Below are positions 10,322 through 55,675 of a stretch of DNA of 64,000 bases, in pieces. Source of the stretch: a virus. Where the stretch lies: the IMG/VR virus record IMGVR_UViG_3300005393_000308; one strand, given 5' to 3'. Within the stretch, counting starts at the first letter, position 1; the number at the start of each line of letters is the position of its first letter. The notes beneath the pieces were generated by a model that did not search any database, had not been told where the DNA came from, and saw nothing but the letters and a program-made list of their open reading frames with translations. Position numbers and translations under genes: made by a program.

Positions 10322-10665
10322 GTTCCTTCCCTTCCTTTCGGAACCCCTTACGGGGCCAGTGACGGGTCCAGGCGGACTCTCCTGGACCGCTCCCCTCGCC
10401 AATGTCGCCAGCCGGTCATCTGCTCCGGCCCGTTTCGCCCACACCCCAAAGGTTGTCTGCAGCCGTAGCTTCCAGGGTCCGGGACTGGGGAAGCATCCCG
10501 GAGTGGGTCTTTAGCCTGCCAGCAACATAGCGACTTCCTTGTCTTGTCCTTCGGCTCAGCCGCTTAGGCTGGTCATAGACAGGCTTGCGGGGTCATCCCA
10601 GCAAGCCCCCGGCTTTAGCCGTGGGGTCTATGACAAGCCTCGGACTTCAGTCCAGGGTGATTGAC
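10256..10665 (-). mobile_element. Truncated IscB-type IS200/IS605 element with two stacked left ends
   Basis: GTCAATCACCCTGGACTGAAGTCCGAGGCTT (10665-10635) directly followed by GTCATAGACCCCACGGCTAAAGCCGGGGGCTTG; right end missing. Confidence 0.85.
10322..10634 (-). ncRNA. Orphan HEARO/omega RNA
   Basis: Shares GTCATAG..CTATGAC pairing, CCAGCCT, CTGAGCCGAAGGACAAG, GCTA.GTT and TTGGCGAGG blocks with the omega RNA at 43041-43302; lies directly upstream of an iscB start. Confidence 0.75.
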
Positions 10666-13059: not shown

Positions 13060-16000
13060 TCACCCTCCCATAACCAATGGTGGTAGGTACGGTAAAATGT
13101 TCATCTGCTGGCCGTTTATGATCAGCTCAATATGCAGGTGCGGCCCACGAGCATTCCCTGTGTTGCCCTGATAACCAATCACCTGTCCGGCTTTTACAGT
13201 GCTTCCGACACTGACGTTTATACTGCTCAAGTGAGCATACAGGGTGCTGATATTCTCGCCGTGGTCGATTACCACGTAGTTGCCGTATCCCGCATCATAC
13301 GTTGCTTTTGCTGCAGTTCCCGCCTGTACTGCTGTGATTGGAGCGTTGTTTGGATAGAAAGCAATATCTACTCCTTTGTGCCGGTATGTTTTGTTGTATT
13401 TTGGTGGTTCTCTCAGTTCGTCGAACACACTGGTTACCGTACCTGCCCTGTCGGATGGTGCGCCAAGATACATTCCATTGGGCAGGGCCTGTTGTCCTGC
13501 TGTGCCGTTTATATACTCCATATTGCTACCGCCTGCGCTTCCTTTAGTATCGTTGCTTCCCTCGTCAAAGGCAACCAGGTTCTTTGAACCGGTTATGCCT
13601 GCCACAAAGTATTTATCCTTCAGCATCAGCGGGTATATCTTCACCTTGTTCATATTGGTGAAGACCTTTTCTATACTTTGGAGCAGGCCATCGATCAACC
13701 CGAATACCGCGATCTCAACGAGTGCCGGAACAATGGTTACCCTAGCCACCTTTGCAAAGCCGCCTGCGATACTCATGGCTTTTCTAAGTTTTCCACCCAT
13801 CCCGGCCGCTCTGACAACATCTGCGACCTCATCGGAAGCATCCGCTGTTATTTCAACGTCTCTGAACTTATTGAGAAACCCCTCAATACCTTCCGTCACC
13901 ATTGCCTTGCCTTTCTGTGCAAACTGCAAGGCATTCTGGCGGAGAACTGCCATCTTCTCCATGAACTTTCCGCCTGTCAACCTGGTCCTGACCATGAATC
14001 TTAAAACCCTGAATAAGACGTATGTACCGGCGGCAATTGCGTGGGTATACAGCCTGTTCCACTGTTCTGTCAGTTCAATATGTCTTGTAATCAGGTCGGG
14101 CTTAACCATAGAAATGAACCCGGTCTGCGGCGAAATGGAATGCACCACCTTTCCTACTTCCGCCAGACCGAACATACACGTGTAGGTGTCGTCCAGGTAA
14201 AACAGGTCGTATGGCTTGACAGACGGTGTGCCCCGCACTATCAGGTTGTCTTTGTACATGTTGCGCATCTTCTCTACAAGATGACTCTGTGCGAATATTA
14301 TCGCCCTATCCTCGCCAATTCTTTCTCCAAAATAGTGGTACACCATATCCGGCCCGATTATATCCTGGACGGTGCCTGAGTCTACCAAATCCGTCTTTTG
14401 CAGGTCAGCTCGAATCGTCCAGTCCGCCATCACTACCGGACTGGTCACAGCTTTGCCACCTAGTGTGTATATCGCCGCGACATTGGTGGCGATATCCCTG
14501 GCGCTGGCTTTTACGCTGTTATACAGGATATCGGTATGCGAAGAGAACGTGTAGAACTGCTGCAGGGTTGTGTAGACACACTCGTAGGACGCTTCGCTCA
14601 TCACGCTCACTGCTTTGTCTTTGGAGGTATCTCTGATACCAAGCAGTCCTTTAATACCCTCCCAGGCGGCGCCGGTATCATCCAGCATTCCTACAGCGTC
14701 TGGTGTCTGGTTGTCACCTGCGCTTGCTGTATTTGCCGGAGGGGGTACATTTCGTTTTGTCCATTTATACTTGATGCACATAGGCCACCAGGGTAGACCG
14801 AAAAAGAAGGTAGACCTGAACTGGAACGGCACCACCGATATTATGTAGCCTGTAGTGCATTTGGCGATTATACTGAAAATATCCCACGGAGTCTTCTTGC
14901 CGAGCCATACGCCTATGTTTCTTTCGCCAAATATCTTACTCCTTGTTTCCTCCCACTTACTGCTTAAAACGTCCAGTCCATGTTCGATTCCTCTGACTGC
15001 TTCCTGTATTTTTGTTTCTACTTCCTTCTCTACCATTTTCCATAGCTTTGTTCCCTTAATACCTTCCCAGGCATCGCTGGTATCATCCAGCATTCCTACA
15101 GCGTCTGGCTCTTCAGACTCATTCGTGGCAACCTCTGTAGATGTATCCTGTGTTGGCTGTTGTGTGCCTGGCGATTTCTGGGCGGCGTAGTCCCGCCAGA
15201 TTTTGTTCAACTCGCCGATTTTGATATTCGTGGAGTAGACGTTCATCAGCACATCAAAGGTGGCTACATCATTGCCCCATACAAGAGGGCCTTCTGGTTT
15301 CTTTACTGTTCCGAAATGCTCAATCCCGTAAGGACTTGAGGCTCCGAAAGAATATCCCTTGCCGAACTCGCTCGGCACGTCGCCGATCATCCTGCCGATA
15401 AGGTTTTTCAGCATATTTGACTCAAGGTGAAATCCTATGCCGCGCTTAGCCAGGATGCGGGAGATTATACTGGTCGGCTCTGTACCAGTATTGAAAAAAC
15501 TGGTCTTGTCGTCGGGGCCGAAGTTGAGCATTTCGTTTAGGAGTTCATGACCGTCACCCTGGGCAACAAATGTGGCCATTTCCTCCGCATCCACTTCAAC
15601 TATTGTCCCGTTGAATACAACTGGCAACCCGCTGGCCTGACTACTGTAGCCCATGCGGATATGCACTCTAGCCCCGGGCCGGATCATAAGATCCTTAAAC
15701 AGCTGCCGGCGCATCTCCAGGCTGTGTTGGGTTATTGCCGGGAAGAGCCTCTGTATAGTGCGGAGTTTAGTTAGATTAGGCGGCACGGTATAGTGGTTTA
15801 GGGCGCCATAGACGTTGGTGAGTTCCATATATGCTAAGTCAGCTGGATTGCCGCGCTCCTTGACTATATCCAGGCTGACCATGGAGTGGTAAAAGTAAAA
15901 GTTATTCCACAGCTTGCGGCCGCCCACCCACTCGCCTTCGTCTATAAACATCATAAGAAAGGTGGGGAAAGCCTGTACCAGCCGGCCGCGCTTGTCGTAC

Positions 16001-16623
16001 ATAGTGTCGTTATAATGCATCAGGTTAACGATGTCTTCAGGTGTATACTCTGCCGGGTTGATCTCGCTGTTGAGATCGTCCTGCCTGTCCATCCGCAGAG
16101 GTTTGGTAAAGTAACATTTGCCTGGCTGGGTTGGATTAAACCATTCCGGTTTACTGCCAAGCGATCCCCTGGTGGTAACAGATGATTCCTGGGAAGTTCC
16201 GCTTCCTTCCCACTCTCCAGACTCGATAGATTGGTAGATACTCCATACGTTCTGGGCCCACGTAGCCGGATCGTCCGGCCTGTGGACCTCGCTCACGAAG
16301 GCCAGTATGGCATTGTAATTGACACCACCATACCTTCTCAGGTACATGCTTAGCGAGGCAATCCACGGCAGGCCAGTATAACACATGCTTGTCATAAGCT
16401 GTTGTTCAATACCTGCGGCCGAGGCTAAGCGTGGCCCTTTGCTTGGCACTCCAACGCCAAGAATGTATCCGTCCCTACCGGCCCCTTTTTGTCCCCAGTT
16501 GGTTTCCTGCCAACCAATAGCCGCTATAAGCTCCGGAGGGACATTATATTGGCTGCCATATTTCTCTAGGATAATCCAGTCGCTTTGCGGCACAAAGTCT
16601 GGTTTCACCAAATTATGCGGCAC
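13060..16623 (-). CDS. Tail-associated lysin/hub: N-terminal lysozyme/transglycosylase-like domain, C-terminal M23 peptidase
   Basis: ELIAAIGWQETNWG; HKGVDI, GYGNYVVIDH, YAHL, GPHLHIE; its first codons lie inside an IS remnant. Confidence 0.8.
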   Translation of the reverse strand: MPHNLVKPDFVPQSDWIILEKYGSQYNVPPELIAAIGWQETNWGQKGAGRDGYILGVGVPSKGPRLASAAGIEQQLMTSMCYTGLPWIASLSMYLRRYGGVNYNAILAFVSEVHRPDDPATWAQNVWSIYQSIESGEWEGSGTSQESSVTTRGSLGSKPEWFNPTQPGKCYFTKPLRMDRQDDLNSEINPAEYTPEDIVNLMHYNDTMYDKRGRLVQAFPTFLMMFIDEGEWVGGRKLWNNFYFYHSMVSLDIVKERGNPADLAYMELTNVYGALNHYTVPPNLTKLRTIQRLFPAITQHSLEMRRQLFKDLMIRPGARVHIRMGYSSQASGLPVVFNGTIVEVDAEEMATFVAQGDGHELLNEMLNFGPDDKTSFFNTGTEPTSIISRILAKRGIGFHLESNMLKNLIGRMIGDVPSEFGKGYSFGASSPYGIEHFGTVKKPEGPLVWGNDVATFDVLMNVYSTNIKIGELNKIWRDYAAQKSPGTQQPTQDTSTEVATNESEEPDAVGMLDDTSDAWEGIKGTKLWKMVEKEVETKIQEAVRGIEHGLDVLSSKWEETRSKIFGERNIGVWLGKKTPWDIFSIIAKCTTGYIISVVPFQFRSTFFFGLPWWPMCIKYKWTKRNVPPPANTASAGDNQTPDAVGMLDDTGAAWEGIKGLLGIRDTSKDKAVSVMSEASYECVYTTLQQFYTFSSHTDILYNSVKASARDIATNVAAIYTLGGKAVTSPVVMADWTIRADLQKTDLVDSGTVQDIIGPDMVYHYFGERIGEDRAIIFAQSHLVEKMRNMYKDNLIVRGTPSVKPYDLFYLDDTYTCMFGLAEVGKVVHSISPQTGFISMVKPDLITRHIELTEQWNRLYTHAIAAGTYVLFRVLRFMVRTRLTGGKFMEKMAVLRQNALQFAQKGKAMVTEGIEGFLNKFRDVEITADASDEVADVVRAAGMGGKLRKAMSIAGGFAKVARVTIVPALVEIAVFGLIDGLLQSIEKVFTNMNKVKIYPLMLKDKYFVAGITGSKNLVAFDEGSNDTKGSAGGSNMEYINGTAGQQALPNGMYLGAPSDRAGTVTSVFDELREPPKYNKTYRHKGVDIAFYPNNAPITAVQAGTAAKATYDAGYGNYVVIDHGENISTLYAHLSSINVSVGSTVKAGQVIGYQGNTGNARGPHLHIELIINGQQMNILPYLPPLVMGG

Positions 16624-16773
16624 CGGAAACCCCAGCGTTTACGCCTGGGGAGGAGGCGCCGCGCCCTCCCTTCGTATATCCGTATCCATCTGCCCGCTGA
16701 AGCAAGCGACAATACCTCCACCAATCATCTTCCGGCGTCGGGCGCCCCCGGCTTTAACCATGGGGTCTATGAC
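16610..16773 (-). mobile_element. 164-nt composite IscB-type remnant (left-end/right-end fusion plus deleted iscB 3' end)
   Basis: GTCATAGACCCCATGGTTAAAGCCGGGGGCGCCCGACGCCG, then GGAGG-TTG and LLQRADGYGYTKGGRGASSPGVNAGVSGAA*, matching the IscB C-terminus LLQRADGYEYAKGESGVSSPRLKTGAPDAA*. Confidence 0.88.
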
Positions 16774-18500
16774 TGGGAGGATATGTCGCCCCAGTGAGAG
16801 TAATCAATGTAGAAGTCTGGGTCTACCAGTATGTTGGGGTTTCTCTCGACAGCCGGATTGGTATACATCTGGAAACTGAGCGCCGGCAGGCCATAGGCGT
16901 TTCTCTGCTGGTTAATCTGGTCTATAGCGGCTGCCAGTTGGTAATACGTGGGCAAGGGCAAGTCCGGGTACAGGTCAAAACCGTCCAGCATTTCCTCTAC
17001 GAGACATGCGTGCTCTATTTCGGTCATATCGTTTACATTCACGCCTGCAATTGTTTCCAGGGTGTTGTTTATGTATTTTAAAGCCTCTGTCTGCTCATAG
17101 TTTCTCTGCATACGGTCGAAGCCAATCATTGACAGTGCGACCCTGAAAAGCCCCGGCATTCCTTCTATAGTATCCACCTGTATTGATTGAACCATGGCGT
17201 ATTTCATACCGAACAGGGCGGCAAGCTCGTTGTTGAAGCCAACAAAGCCGCTCACAAAGCGGTTGCGGTATTTGATGCTGTAGTCATTGGTGATTTCAAC
17301 CATTTGCTGTAGCAGCAGAATTGCGTCCCTGTTTGGTGTCTCGAAAGTGGCGATGATCTGTTTTTCCATACTTCCGAGGTACTGGTGACAGGGCATGGTA
17401 TATGACTGGACGTTGAGGTTGGCAAAGCTGTTCCCCATTCCTACGACCATATGCGTCAGCACAAGGTCATCGGGCAAATCGATCTGAACCATGTTGTTGC
17501 CAATATCAAACACCCCACTACCGTCGCTTCCGGTGCCGCTTTTACTGAGCGTGATAACCCCGCTGTCGTCCCAGTCAACCCTATAGCCAAGCACTTCGCC
17601 CACCTGGCGTACCAATACCCAGGCAGTGCCGTCCACTATTTTGTACGGCCTGAAACTCTTCCCGCCGATTATTACGTTTGGGCTTTTCCACTCTATCGTT
17701 TTGCCCAACAGGCTGGCCAATTTCCGGGCCGGCATAATGCTGCGATCCAGTCCGTCGATCTGGACGATTTCGTACCCGCTACTGATTTTCACAGGTGCCG
17801 ACGGATTGAGGTTTGCTGTGTTTTCAAGATTTCCACCAGCGCTTCCCTCTATGAGCACCGATTCGTCCAGGACGGAGAAGATATACCTCTCAGTCATGCA
17901 TGGTTCGGTTACCTGTTCGAGGCACTCTACATCCTCGCCGGTCATGAGCCGCTGGTAATACCACCTGAAGATGGGCCAGCAGATGTAGTCGGCCAGCTTA
18001 TAGTCAGGAATGTACATGTAGGGTTCTATGGTTGTTTTATATAGAATTAAGTCAGCTTCCAGCGCTCCGGGAAAGTCGGGAACGGTCTGCACGACTATAT
18101 TGGATAGAATAACTGTGTATATATCGTGCACGTCATTGAGTAACTCGTTGAAAACAGGAAGTATTGGGGTGCACCTGAACTGCGCTATCAGCGGGCGCAG
18201 GCCGTCCATCCAGTACCGCCTTCCTCCTGGACCGGCCACTTCCACACCATTAATATCGTTCAGGTCGTTAAACCAGAGTTTTACGCGTACTTCAGTTTGA
18301 GTGAAGCCGCTGTTGGTCAGGATGCTGTTTTTCTGCCGCAGGCCCTGGTAAGAATGAATACTATTCACCTGTTTGACGCTTATACTCTCTGGCGGCACGC
18401 TGAATACGCAGTCGCCGATCTGAAGGTGATATATGGTCATATTTCTTCTTGTGGCTGGCAGAAGATCGTCAAATAGCTTTATCAACGGTACGGAACTCAA
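16767..18500 (-). CDS. Tail/baseplate hub protein (possibly N-terminal part of a split gene) with copper-amine-oxidase-N-like module
   Basis: 577 aa; WVLVRQVGEVLGYRVDWDD; its stop codon is supplied by the inserted IS left end. Confidence 0.65.
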   Translation of the reverse strand: MSSVPLIKLFDDLLPATRRNMTIYHLQIGDCVFSVPPESISVKQVNSIHSYQGLRQKNSILTNSGFTQTEVRVKLWFNDLNDINGVEVAGPGGRRYWMDGLRPLIAQFRCTPILPVFNELLNDVHDIYTVILSNIVVQTVPDFPGALEADLILYKTTIEPYMYIPDYKLADYICWPIFRWYYQRLMTGEDVECLEQVTEPCMTERYIFSVLDESVLIEGSAGGNLENTANLNPSAPVKISSGYEIVQIDGLDRSIMPARKLASLLGKTIEWKSPNVIIGGKSFRPYKIVDGTAWVLVRQVGEVLGYRVDWDDSGVITLSKSGTGSDGSGVFDIGNNMVQIDLPDDLVLTHMVVGMGNSFANLNVQSYTMPCHQYLGSMEKQIIATFETPNRDAILLLQQMVEITNDYSIKYRNRFVSGFVGFNNELAALFGMKYAMVQSIQVDTIEGMPGLFRVALSMIGFDRMQRNYEQTEALKYINNTLETIAGVNVNDMTEIEHACLVEEMLDGFDLYPDLPLPTYYQLAAAIDQINQQRNAYGLPALSFQMYTNPAVERNPNILVDPDFYIDYSHWGDISSQS

Positions 18501-41719: not shown

Positions 41720-41722
41720 AGG

Positions 41723-43027
41723 TTACGCGGCGTCGGGAGCCCCCGTCTTTAGACGTGGGGAGGAGACGCCACTCTCTCCTTTCGCATACTCGTATCCGTC
41801 TGCCCGCTGTAACAGATGCAGGTACTTTGGGTGGACGTCGAAACCGTTGAGCTCGAAGCTTGGGCGAAACCGGATCGCGACACGACCGATATGCATACCG
41901 GCATGTTTACCGTTTGGGATCAGCGCTTTCACCAGATCACCGGTGCGGTAGCCCATGAACCGCTTTGCCCGAGGCGCATGCCGGATTGGGAAGCCGTATT
42001 TGTCCGTCCCGCATCGCTGGCGCTTTCCGTATCCCTTGGCGGTTATTTGCAGCACTTGCCGCGGAAGGATCAGTCTATCCGGGGTGCTAGCTCCGACACA
42101 GGCGGCATCTATCCAGTGGGCTTTCGGCAGTCCCAGTCGAGTTCGGTTGTATTTGGTGCGGCCACCAGTTCCAACTTCAATGGGGATGTTGAAGCCGGTC
42201 AGTCTGCGATACAACTCCCAGCGCGTGGCGTTAACGGCCGCCGCGTCTTTCAGGGGAATCCGCGCCCTGGCCTGCACTTCGGGATAGCCAAACTCCTCCG
42301 CCGTCCGGTTCCCCTTGGCCTGGTTGCAAGCACGGCAGGCCAGCGTTAGATTAGACACCCGGTTGCTGCCGCCGCGGCTCTTGGGAACGATGTGCTCGAT
42401 CTCCAGCGGCACGTTCTCCGCGCCGCAGTACGCGCAGCGGCGTCCCCATTTCTCCAGCAGATACTCTCGGACTTCATAGCCGAAGAGCTCGCCCCGCTGG
42501 TACTCCACGCCAGCGATCTCCGGGGTCTGGAGCGCTTGCGTATCGAACCGGACCAGCTCCACCGACACCGCCGCTGCGGGCGCATATCGCTGTAGACGAT
42601 CCACCCAGGTCAGTACGTTCGCAACCCGGCTCACCAGCGACGGCGGCAACCAGCCCTCCGGCCGGCGGCGGTTGTCGAAGCGCGGCTTCCGGTGGCGCGT
42701 TTTGCGATTCCGCCGTGCGCGTCGCAATGCTCTGCGCTCCAGGAGCCTGCGCTTAACCTGTTCACCCCGGTGCTCGACCTCTGCCGCCCATATGATGCGG
42801 TTAGTGTCTTCACACACGAGGGCCAGCCCCGTCACCTTGGAGCCGGGGTCGATCTTGACCCGGTGCGGGTGGACGATCGATCCATCCAGCGTCCGATCTC
42901 TGAGAATGATGGTGAACGGGTAACGGCGAAAAACCGCAGCCCTGCCGGAGCGCAGGAGTTGCCGCGCTCTGGCCGGGTGACAAGGATCAAGCGGCTTTTT
43001 GTCCCTATCCAACACGAATACTCTCAA
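41723..43027 (-). CDS. iscB: RNA-guided endonuclease IscB (PLMP/RRXRR, split RuvC, HNH)
   Basis: 434 aa; KPLDPCHPARARQLL, KIDPGSKVTG, RRALRRARR, VELVRFD, CAYC..EHIVPKSRGGSNRVSNLTLACRACN, HWIDAAC. Confidence 0.95.
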   Translation of the reverse strand: MRVFVLDRDKKPLDPCHPARARQLLRSGRAAVFRRYPFTIILRDRTLDGSIVHPHRVKIDPGSKVTGLALVCEDTNRIIWAAEVEHRGEQVKRRLLERRALRRARRNRKTRHRKPRFDNRRRPEGWLPPSLVSRVANVLTWVDRLQRYAPAAAVSVELVRFDTQALQTPEIAGVEYQRGELFGYEVREYLLEKWGRRCAYCGAENVPLEIEHIVPKSRGGSNRVSNLTLACRACNQAKGNRTAEEFGYPEVQARARIPLKDAAAVNATRWELYRRLTGFNIPIEVGTGGRTKYNRTRLGLPKAHWIDAACVGASTPDRLILPRQVLQITAKGYGKRQRCGTDKYGFPIRHAPRAKRFMGYRTGDLVKALIPNGKHAGMHIGRVAIRFRPSFELNGFDVHPKYLHLLQRADGYEYAKGESGVSSPRLKTGAPDAA

Positions 43028-43040
43028 GCAAATACCTCCT

Positions 43041-43302
43041 TACGTCGGCTTTCTCGGGTTTCCCCGGTCAAGTGAGCCTCGCCAAGGTTATCCCGGCTTT
43101 TGCATCCAGCACACTGGCTTCAACCCCGTATGCCTGTTTAATGCCGGACGACAGAGCCTGGAGCTGGCTCGCGCACCCCAGGGTGTCGTGACCGGGATAA
43201 CGTAGCATCCTCGTCGCCTTGTCCTTCGGCTCAGATGCTGAGGCTGGTCATAGCCGAGCTTGCTTGTAGCAAGCCCCCGACTTTAGTCGTGGGGTCTATG
43301 AC
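43041..43302 (-). ncRNA. HEARO/omega RNA of the intact iscB element
   Basis: About 260 nt between the left end and the iscB RBS; GTCATAG/CTATGAC pairing, GCTACGTT, CCAGCTCCAGGCTCTG, CCTTGGCGAGG blocks. Confidence 0.85.
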
Positions 43303-54392: not shown

Positions 54393-55460
54393 CTACTTAA
54401 GCAGAATCCTGACTACACCCACGGCTCCAACATAGTCCCATCCCGGAGGGGTGCCGTACATATAGGATTTATAGGTTATACTTCCGGCGGTTGCGTCTGT
54501 GTAACCTTCAGGCAGTGTGATCGTCACCGAGCCATTCTTGTGGTCAATTGCCAGATTATCAGCAGCCACAGCCCTTCCACCGATGGCAACCCCAACAGAA
54601 CCGGGGATAACATTCTTGTAGCTCAGGTTGACAATGAGTTTGTCGCCTTCTGCTGAGCCAGCTGGAACGGTGAATGTTTCAGACCAGTTCGTACTCGCCC
54701 GTGCGCTGCCGTCGGTAAGTCCCTTAATACCCTTGGGGTTGAGCATATAGGGGTTGTGGTAGTGGTCGGTATCAATAGTGCCGTCCCGGTAGGCGGGTTC
54801 ATACGGGTAGCCGTTGTCGGTAGGAGTGGCGTTCTGAGCCCACGCCGGCTCAACCTTATCCTCGTTCCTGGCAGTCTCATCCCACATGACCCACTTGAAC
54901 CATCCCCACGGCTCCTGTTCGGCTTCAATGGCAATAACCTGTCCAACTATCTGGGCAATACCATTGCTTTCGGTCCATTTGGTCAGGTGACCTTTATTAC
55001 TGGAATCGCTGGATACGGTAACGATATCGCCTTCCTTCAGCTCCCCGTAGACAGCCCCGTACTTCACTGCGGCACAGTCGGCAGCGTTGGGGATATACGG
55101 CAGCTCAATGTAGGCATTGCGGATAAATGTGGGTTCATTCCCCACTAGCTGGTCGTTGTATTTCTTGCAGATGTTGTAAGGCGCAATACCAACATAGGGA
55201 TTGGCTCCCGTGGCAATGGTCAATACCGGCTTCTTCTTGCCGGTCTCGAAGTCCACCTGTGCCGGACCTACAGCCACGGCTAACCCTTTCGGTATGACTA
55301 CCTCCGTCATGCCGGGCCAGCCGAATGGATACTTGATGAGTATAGGCAAATCGGGATCCAGGAGAAAGGATTCAGGGAGCTGGTCGGTACCGGAGACAAT
55401 CAGTCTGGAATTGGCAGACCGGCTCTTGAGTTGATAATTCATTCCAGGTATCAAAGCCAT
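54393..55460 (-). CDS. Capsid decoration/minor head protein
   Basis: 355 aa between protease and capsid; VIPKGLAV, GIAPYN, LKEGDIV..KGHL. Confidence 0.55.
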   Translation of the reverse strand: MALIPGMNYQLKSRSANSRLIVSGTDQLPESFLLDPDLPILIKYPFGWPGMTEVVIPKGLAVAVGPAQVDFETGKKKPVLTIATGANPYVGIAPYNICKKYNDQLVGNEPTFIRNAYIELPYIPNAADCAAVKYGAVYGELKEGDIVTVSSDSSNKGHLTKWTESNGIAQIVGQVIAIEAEQEPWGWFKWVMWDETARNEDKVEPAWAQNATPTDNGYPYEPAYRDGTIDTDHYHNPYMLNPKGIKGLTDGSARASTNWSETFTVPAGSAEGDKLIVNLSYKNVIPGSVGVAIGGRAVAADNLAIDHKNGSVTITLPEGYTDATAGSITYKSYMYGTPPGWDYVGAVGVVRILLK

Positions 55461-55494: not shown

Positions 55495-55675
55495 GTGACG
55501 ACTCCCGGGACTGAAGTCCGAGGCTTCTCGGTTCTTCTAACCTGCTACCGCAAGACTGTCCCTGAAGGCCCCGTCCAGGCCTGTTTTGATTCTTTACAGC
55601 AGCCAGTATTTTCAGCTTTGCTACTGTACGTTTTCATCCCCGGAATAAATTCCGAGGTTTTCCCGCGCCATATAT
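55495..55675 (-). mobile_element. 181-nt internally deleted TnpB-type IS200/IS605 element
   Basis: TTAT then GCGCGGGAAAACCTCGGAATTTATTCCGGGG; right end GAAGCCTCGGACTTCAGTCCCGGGAGTCGTCAC; intergenic. Confidence 0.8.

Follow-up and report, generated by a model that had tools for sequence, protein, structure and literature searches.

A decayed IscB-type transposon remnant at the junction of two phage hub genes

The stretch of viral DNA analysed here, 64,000 nucleotides (nt) of IMG/VR record IMGVR_UViG_3300005393_000308 (hereafter the window), carries a composite, non-autonomous IscB-type remnant of the IS200/IS605 group at the junction of the two genes that encode the tail hub of a giant phage. 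The remnant occupies 165 nt (16609..16773, minus strand in iscB orientation) and was recognised by homology to an intact copy elsewhere in the window. Most probably, an IscB-type element landed on the GTGA stop/start overlap of two hub genes that were already separate, and later decayed. Comparison with related phages indicates that the two-gene hub was inherited in this phage clade and does not support the view that the insert split it.

Hub homologues and the position of the gene boundary

The first half of the hub (577 amino acids (aa); 16767..18500, minus strand) and the second, hub/lysin half (13060..16608, minus strand; 1182 aa from GTG 16608, or 1187 aa from GTG 16623) were colinear on one PHROG family, phrog_20474, where they matched profile positions 133–606 and 912–1681, respectively. 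In tblastn searches, both open reading frames (ORFs) fell within one annotated coding sequence (CDS) in six phage records representing five distinct phages, including gp147 of 0305phi8-36. Such distant single-chain homologues measured approximately 1,600–2,500 aa. Single-CDS homologues, taken alone, would favour a split by the insert. The closest homologues, in contrast, were two genes. A phmmer scan of the first ORF covered 1.8 billion representatives, from which the best 150 matches were listed; the two best were stand-alone proteins matched end to end (52% identity, 572 aa; 48% identity, 591 aa), whereas the remaining matches among those listed had identities of at most 44% and were nearly all 1,400–2,800 aa long. 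Stand-alone homologues of the second ORF measured 1083, 1181, and 1113 aa at 41–45% identity. The halves were found in pairs on Logan contigs of identical size: halves of 572 and 1113 aa shared a size of 48,319 nt, another pair of this kind one of 58,795 nt, and halves of 591 and 1181 aa one of 26,661 nt. From these identical sizes, each pair of halves seems to be encoded by one phage, which would amount to two to three uncultured phages.

In one IMG/VR relative (L002), the closest with DNA available, the gene boundary was visible in the DNA. Its 569-aa first half ended 7 residues past the motif DPDFYIDYS; the next 76 nt formed a spacer free of HEARO and of IS-like sequence, and the second gene beyond carried a peptidoglycan-binding module where the phage studied here has a lysozyme-like one. 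The second hub part of this relative (L002:7812-11793) was itself made up of two ORFs of 663 and 649 aa, the first with peptidoglycan-binding repeats at its N- and C-terminus. An IMG/VR pattern search with the second-half alignment recovered only this one close phage, apparently the same phage as L057. IMG/VR peptide-pattern searches with the N-terminus of the second gene, the 572-aa homologue, and the first-half alignment gave no matches, and a search of the genome collection returned M23-domain matches only.

The position of the boundary was closely conserved. First halves (n = 5) stopped 6–9 residues past DPDFYIDYS, at 6–7 residues in the relatives and at 8 in this phage if the insert is removed, and second halves began 1–5 residues ahead of a (K/R)P motif. 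These matching end and start positions argue that the gene boundary is older than the insert. An earlier reading of the window, made from the sequence only, had proposed that the insert may split one tail hub/lysin protein, had named homologues that are consistently two genes as the result that would contradict this, and had offered a landing on a pre-existing GTGA overlap and a defective phage as alternatives. Distant phages did encode the hub as one CDS; the nearest relatives encoded two genes broken at the same residue positions, and it is the landing on an existing overlap that the relatives and the flanking motif described below favour.

Anatomy and boundaries of the remnant

Read along the minus strand, the remnant consisted of a 45-nt solo-hairpin unit, an iscB stub introduced by GGAGG and TTG, and a second-end hairpin with a 21-nt tail. 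The solo-hairpin micro-element (16729..16773, minus strand) matched both ends of the intact copy and was composed of the right-end terminus (starting GTCATAG), a hairpin (16744–16765), and a left-end-type tail (16729–16743); the tetranucleotide ATGA (16725–16728) came next. The stub (16613..16724, minus strand) contained the GGAGG ribosome-binding site and a 30-codon frame in which the TTG (16703–16705, starting at 16705) was joined in frame to the final 29 codons of iscB, which end at TAA (16613–16615). The left end in the TnpA sense (16609..16650, plus strand) was formed by the 21-nt tail (16609–16629) and a hairpin (16630–16650), so that both ends bore subterminal hairpins with homologues in a full-length family member. 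The sequence-only reading had already described a fused-end mini element followed by a ribosome-binding site, a TTG, and the last ~30 codons of an iscB, and this anatomy was borne out by the BLAST matches and the 30-codon frame. Its labels for the two ends were reversed: the TnpA convention assigns the right end to the side of HEARO and the left end to the 3′ side of iscB.

In BLAST comparisons of the remnant with the rest of the window, 16613–16699 matched the 3′ end of the intact iscB (41723–41809) at 77% of 87 nt (E = 3e-14), 16744–16773 matched the 5′ ends of both HEARO/omega RNAs of the window at 93% and 87% of 30 nt, and 16733–16765 matched the opposite end of the intact copy at 85% of 33 nt (E = 5e-5). 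The observed scores of 68, 46, 38, and 37 bits compared with a maximum of 32.8 bits in 100 shuffles. Overall, the remnant differed from the other copies in the window by approximately 13–23%.

The interior of the original element was almost entirely gone. Only 29–30 nt of the 5′ end of HEARO and the start codon plus the last 29 codons of iscB were left, and neither HEARO nor any other Rfam family was matched within 16609–16773, even at E ≤ 1. The remnant thus holds neither the RuvC/HNH ORF nor the HEARO/omega RNA scaffold of an OMEGA unit. A target-site duplication was absent, the flanks having just a single G in common, and no promoter-like or terminator-like site was found inside the insert. 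Neither the DNA fold of the region (z = 0.35) nor its RNA fold (z = −1.67) was more stable than those of shuffled sequences. The host flank at 16774–16790 was largely complementary to the ribosome-binding region of the stub (16706–16724), and the two were paired in the predicted mRNA fold (z of the whole fold, −1.67). The insert at 16609–16773 is a decayed IS200/IS605 element of the ordinary kind, lying where two genes meet. It cannot home, because the guide scaffold and the nuclease are both missing, and its excision may be achieved at most by TnpA supplied in trans. Intron-like removal at the RNA level was rejected as an explanation on the Rfam result, as was a promoter or terminator role, for which the insert holds no site.

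The right end was fixed at 16773, since all eight IscB copies started with GTCA on the iscB strand while their upstream flanks were unrelated. The exact right-end 12-mer occurred three times in the window and, by pattern search, in 11 IMG/VR loci. At the left end, seven IscB copies showed the hairpin and an 18–22-nt tail followed by RTGR (YCAY on the top strand). Among six further independent copies with the same ends, the next bases were GTGA in five (GTGAA in four) and TTGAA in the sixth; correspondingly, TTCAC lay directly 5′ of the left end in the copy labelled winC and in four of these six. Transposon-adjacent motifs (TAMs) of this family are pentanucleotides abutting the left end, for example TTCAT for GstIscB, and the TTCAC at 16604..16608 (plus strand) matches such a motif in length and position. 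Its minus-strand complement, GTGAA, would hold both the native GTG start of the second gene and the former TGA stop of the first. In their original description, HEARO elements reportedly integrate next to ATGA or GTGA. A pairing of the TAM with bases 5′ of the left-end hairpin, sought by eye as IS608-like covariation, was dropped for its inconsistent register.

The boundary matters by a single nucleotide, as the earlier reading had correctly worked out: removal of 164 nt fuses the two ORFs into one of ~1760 aa, and removal of 165 nt restores a GTGA stop/start overlap. The insert-free junction would read CAGTGAAA under the 165-nt model and CAGGTGAAA under the 164-nt fusion model. From the left-end flank motif and the TAM length, we infer that the element measured 165 nt rather than the 164 nt first assigned to it and that the empty site was ..TCC CA|G TGA.., with a former GTGA overlap.

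It is on this nucleotide that the opposing explanation turns, namely that a 164-nt element interrupted a single hub/lysin gene of ~1,760 aa, which would now work as two chains by means of a transposon-supplied stop and start. The fusion of the frames on removal of 164 nt, the prevalence of single chains spanning both halves in order among the homologues (including gp147 of 0305phi8-36, 1903 aa), and the conserved G before GTGAA, which makes the boundary ambiguous by 1 nt, are all in line with it. It would, however, demand a chance landing within one to two codons of the gene boundary of three to four diverged relatives, and the TAMs of the family are 5 nt long; the same reasoning applied to a related insertion described below (L072) would join two unrelated glycosyltransferases. 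We therefore consider a split of one gene very improbable. Several observations nevertheless weigh against the favoured landing on a pre-existing overlap. The base before GTGAA was G in every copy of the subfamily, so that the alignment alone would also allow a 6-nt motif and a 164-nt element; what excludes this alternative is the evidence of the relatives and the TAM length. At 45% identity, a fused homologue of 1732 aa matched the second half no less closely than the split ones did, and fused and split states are thus interleaved at that distance. The junctions of the closest two-gene relatives are known from called proteins alone, and the co-location of their halves from identical contig sizes. 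Finally, neither this insertion nor any related one yielded an empty-site allele: the 165 nt had no blastn match among 50,697 phage records, and two pattern searches for the empty sites of the L067 group and of L072 returned nothing.

Consequences for the hub genes and parallel insertions

Under the favoured course of events, a full IscB element of the IS605 group, related to the copy at 41720–43302, would have inserted 3′ of the plus-strand TTCAC, which on the coding strand lies directly 5′ of the GTG of the second hub gene, at the GTGA overlap. Insertion could have been achieved by TnpA supplied in trans or by nuclease-driven copying. The solo-hairpin unit would subsequently have been acquired or formed, and deletions would have taken out the omega RNA and approximately 405 of the 434 iscB codons, leaving 165 nt; we infer this order of insertion, gain of the unit, and deletion. 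The end of the first gene would have changed from CA|G TGA to CA|G TCA TAG and that of its protein from ..SSQ to ..SSQS, a gain of one serine, with the second gene retaining its native GTG.

The 577-aa ORF ended in CAG TCA TAG, of which the last sense codon TCA and the stop TAG are part of the element, as had been noted before. The earlier statement that the element also provides the start of the second gene held for its longest form (1187 aa), which begins at GTG 16623 inside the element, and did not hold for the native start; the in-frame GTG 16608 lay just outside the element, and a public protein collection contained the second-half protein starting there (1182 aa, 100% identical). This GTG was located 158 nt downstream of the stop codon of the first gene and 4 nt downstream of the TAA of the stub ORF. 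No good Shine-Dalgarno sequence preceded GTG 16623, TTG 16611, or GTG 16608.

Two other IscB-type loci occurred in the window. The intact reference copy (41720..43302, minus strand) comprised a HEARO/omega RNA (43067–43302) and a 434-aa IscB (41723–43027) with RRXRR and HNH domains, and had a GGAGG site on one side and the GTG start of an 80-aa gene on the other. When this copy was excised in silico, GGAGG, 8 nt, and the GTG of the 80-aa gene became contiguous; the end of the 80-aa gene overlaps the next gene. With the copy in place, the iscB stop was 3 nt before the start of the 80-aa host gene, which is now separated from its own GGAGG. The second locus (10384..10634, minus strand) consisted of a HEARO with the same right-end terminus, followed by a truncated iscB. 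Directly upstream of this HEARO, at 10635–10665, a right-end-type terminus and hairpin of a different subfamily were observed, of which a 92% complementary copy was present 45 kb away on the other strand (55504–55529), upstream of the gene at 54393–55460.

Comparable insertions were encountered in the 11 further IMG/VR loci recovered with the right-end pattern, most of which were ~1.2-kb elements with TnpB on the other strand. In one of them (L072:5551-6796), ends of the window type flanked a ~1.2-kb element whose cargo was a 373-aa TnpB on the opposite strand, and likewise such ends were found in L066, L069, L074, and L076; one end type thus serves both the IscB and the TnpB nuclease cargoes. 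At the same locus, a GT2 glycosyltransferase gene (L072:4874-5557) ended on the right-end TAG of the element, and a GT4 gene started at the GTG flanking the left end, its GT4 domain beginning at residue 15 counted from that GTG. The solo-hairpin architecture was seen again in a 51-nt element with right-end terminus, hairpin, and left-end-type tail, placed 8 nt after a GGAGG and followed by GTGAA (L070:9485-9535), which suggests a recurrent minimal form. Separately, L032 showed an IscB element with AGGAGG plus 8 nt on one side and, on the other, the ATG with which a 329-codon ORF starts. Long ORFs (at least 120 codons) running into this right end were stopped in frame by G-TCA-TAG in four of eight loci, as is expected from insertion into RTGA overlaps. 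A right-end hairpin with the terminus on both sides, one of them inverted, formed a fully palindromic unit in another locus (L073:1342-1378, minus strand as fetched).

These arrangements bear on whether the remnant has been kept by selection. Under such a scenario, the 30-codon stub ORF, with its strong GGAGG site, would act as a leader whose terminating ribosomes are handed on to the second hub gene at its start codon, in replacement of the lost GTGA coupling. The internal deletion spared exactly the ribosome-binding site and start codon, in frame with the original TAA; the three candidate starts of the second gene all lack a good Shine-Dalgarno sequence; and the intact copy places its iscB stop similarly close to a host gene cut off from its GGAGG. 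The case, however, comes from one copy, in which the frame would be kept by chance one time in three. Moreover, other IscB relatives have the stop ~28 nt upstream, in the hairpin loop, and the predicted pairing with the host flank would hide the ribosome-binding site of the stub, in a fold that is itself not significant. A selected relay is accordingly regarded as possible but unlikely. We hold to a similarly doubtful degree a broader proposal, by which this IS605-group family, with IscB or TnpB cargo and TAM TTCAC, is suited to sitting harmlessly on GTGA overlaps and start codons of packed phage operons: the G-TCA-TAG right end would complete the final codon of the upstream gene and stop it one codon later, a nuclease ORF or stub ending 3–4 nt before the host start would restore coupling, and the stub in the window would be a selected relay for an essential hub gene.

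The opposite outcome, a recent and harmful insertion that uncoupled the genes and starved the second of ribosomes, leaving a defective or low-fitness phage, was judged improbable. The 158 nt of structured DNA between stop and start, with no evident Shine-Dalgarno sequence and no promoter-like site in the insert, would fit such damage. The ~13–23% divergence from the other copies and the several deletions, on the other hand, point to long residence, and both hub ORFs and all neighbouring structural ORFs were intact.

All genes in this part of the window were on the minus strand. Upstream of the hub genes was a 2182-aa ORF without a PHROG match, and the downstream genes were baseplate-like. The second hub protein showed a weak lysozyme-like N-terminus and a C-terminal M23 peptidase, and its gene contained a 57-nt direct repeat (14647–14703 and 15052–15108; 91% identical, 405 nt apart) encoding a duplicated ..PDAVGMLDDT..AWEGIKG.. 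segment. An echo was also apparent across the junction, the first protein ending in V-D-P-D-F-Y-x-x-x-S-H-W (16779–16818) and the second beginning with V-K-P-D-F-V-x-x-S-D-W (16570–16608). This PDF echo was present in the relatives too and could be a trace of how an ancestral hub gene was divided.

Comparison with known systems

The analysis mainly amounts to a correction of annotation, in that the two-gene hub appears to be a state inherited in the clade rather than transposon damage, and the second gene should be annotated from GTG 16608. The case further illustrates a route by which start codons and stop/start overlaps of phage operons come to hold transposons with a TTCAY motif, and shows that a host gene can take its stop codon from a transposon end and lose almost nothing by it. 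Should the stub ORF indeed relay ribosomes, it would be a modest instance of gene expression making use of a transposon fragment.

Among described elements, the remnant resembles PATE-like, protein-less IS200/IS605 derivatives, such as those related to ISGst1 and ISGst5 of Geobacillus stearothermophilus (Meers et al., 2023, doi 10.1101/2023.03.14.532601). Like these, it retains the subterminal hairpins of a full-length member together with the neighbouring TAM, has lost the cargo gene, and would be mobile only with TnpA in trans. It differs in being a composite of a 45-nt solo-hairpin unit and an in-frame iscB stub, without omega RNA, on a stop/start overlap in a phage structural operon. ISGst5-type IscB/HEARO elements share the arrangement in which HEARO borders the right end, iscB lies towards the left end, and a TTCAY pentanucleotide TAM is found 5′ of the left end; in the remnant, HEARO is reduced to its first 29 nt and iscB to its last 29 codons. 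The TnpB-bearing IS605-group elements of L066, L069, L072, L074, and L076 have an identical right-end terminus and hairpin, a left end of the same type, and the GTGAA flank, but unlike the remnant they measure ~1.2 kb and carry tnpB on the opposite strand. As to the hub itself, both ORFs matched the baseplate hub gp147 of Bacillus phage 0305phi8-36 (ABS83705.1), which follows the tape measure gene in that phage, in the same order and with 29.5% and 28% identity; gp147 is one chain of 1903 aa, whereas in the phage studied here and in its nearest relatives the hub is divided over two or three genes.

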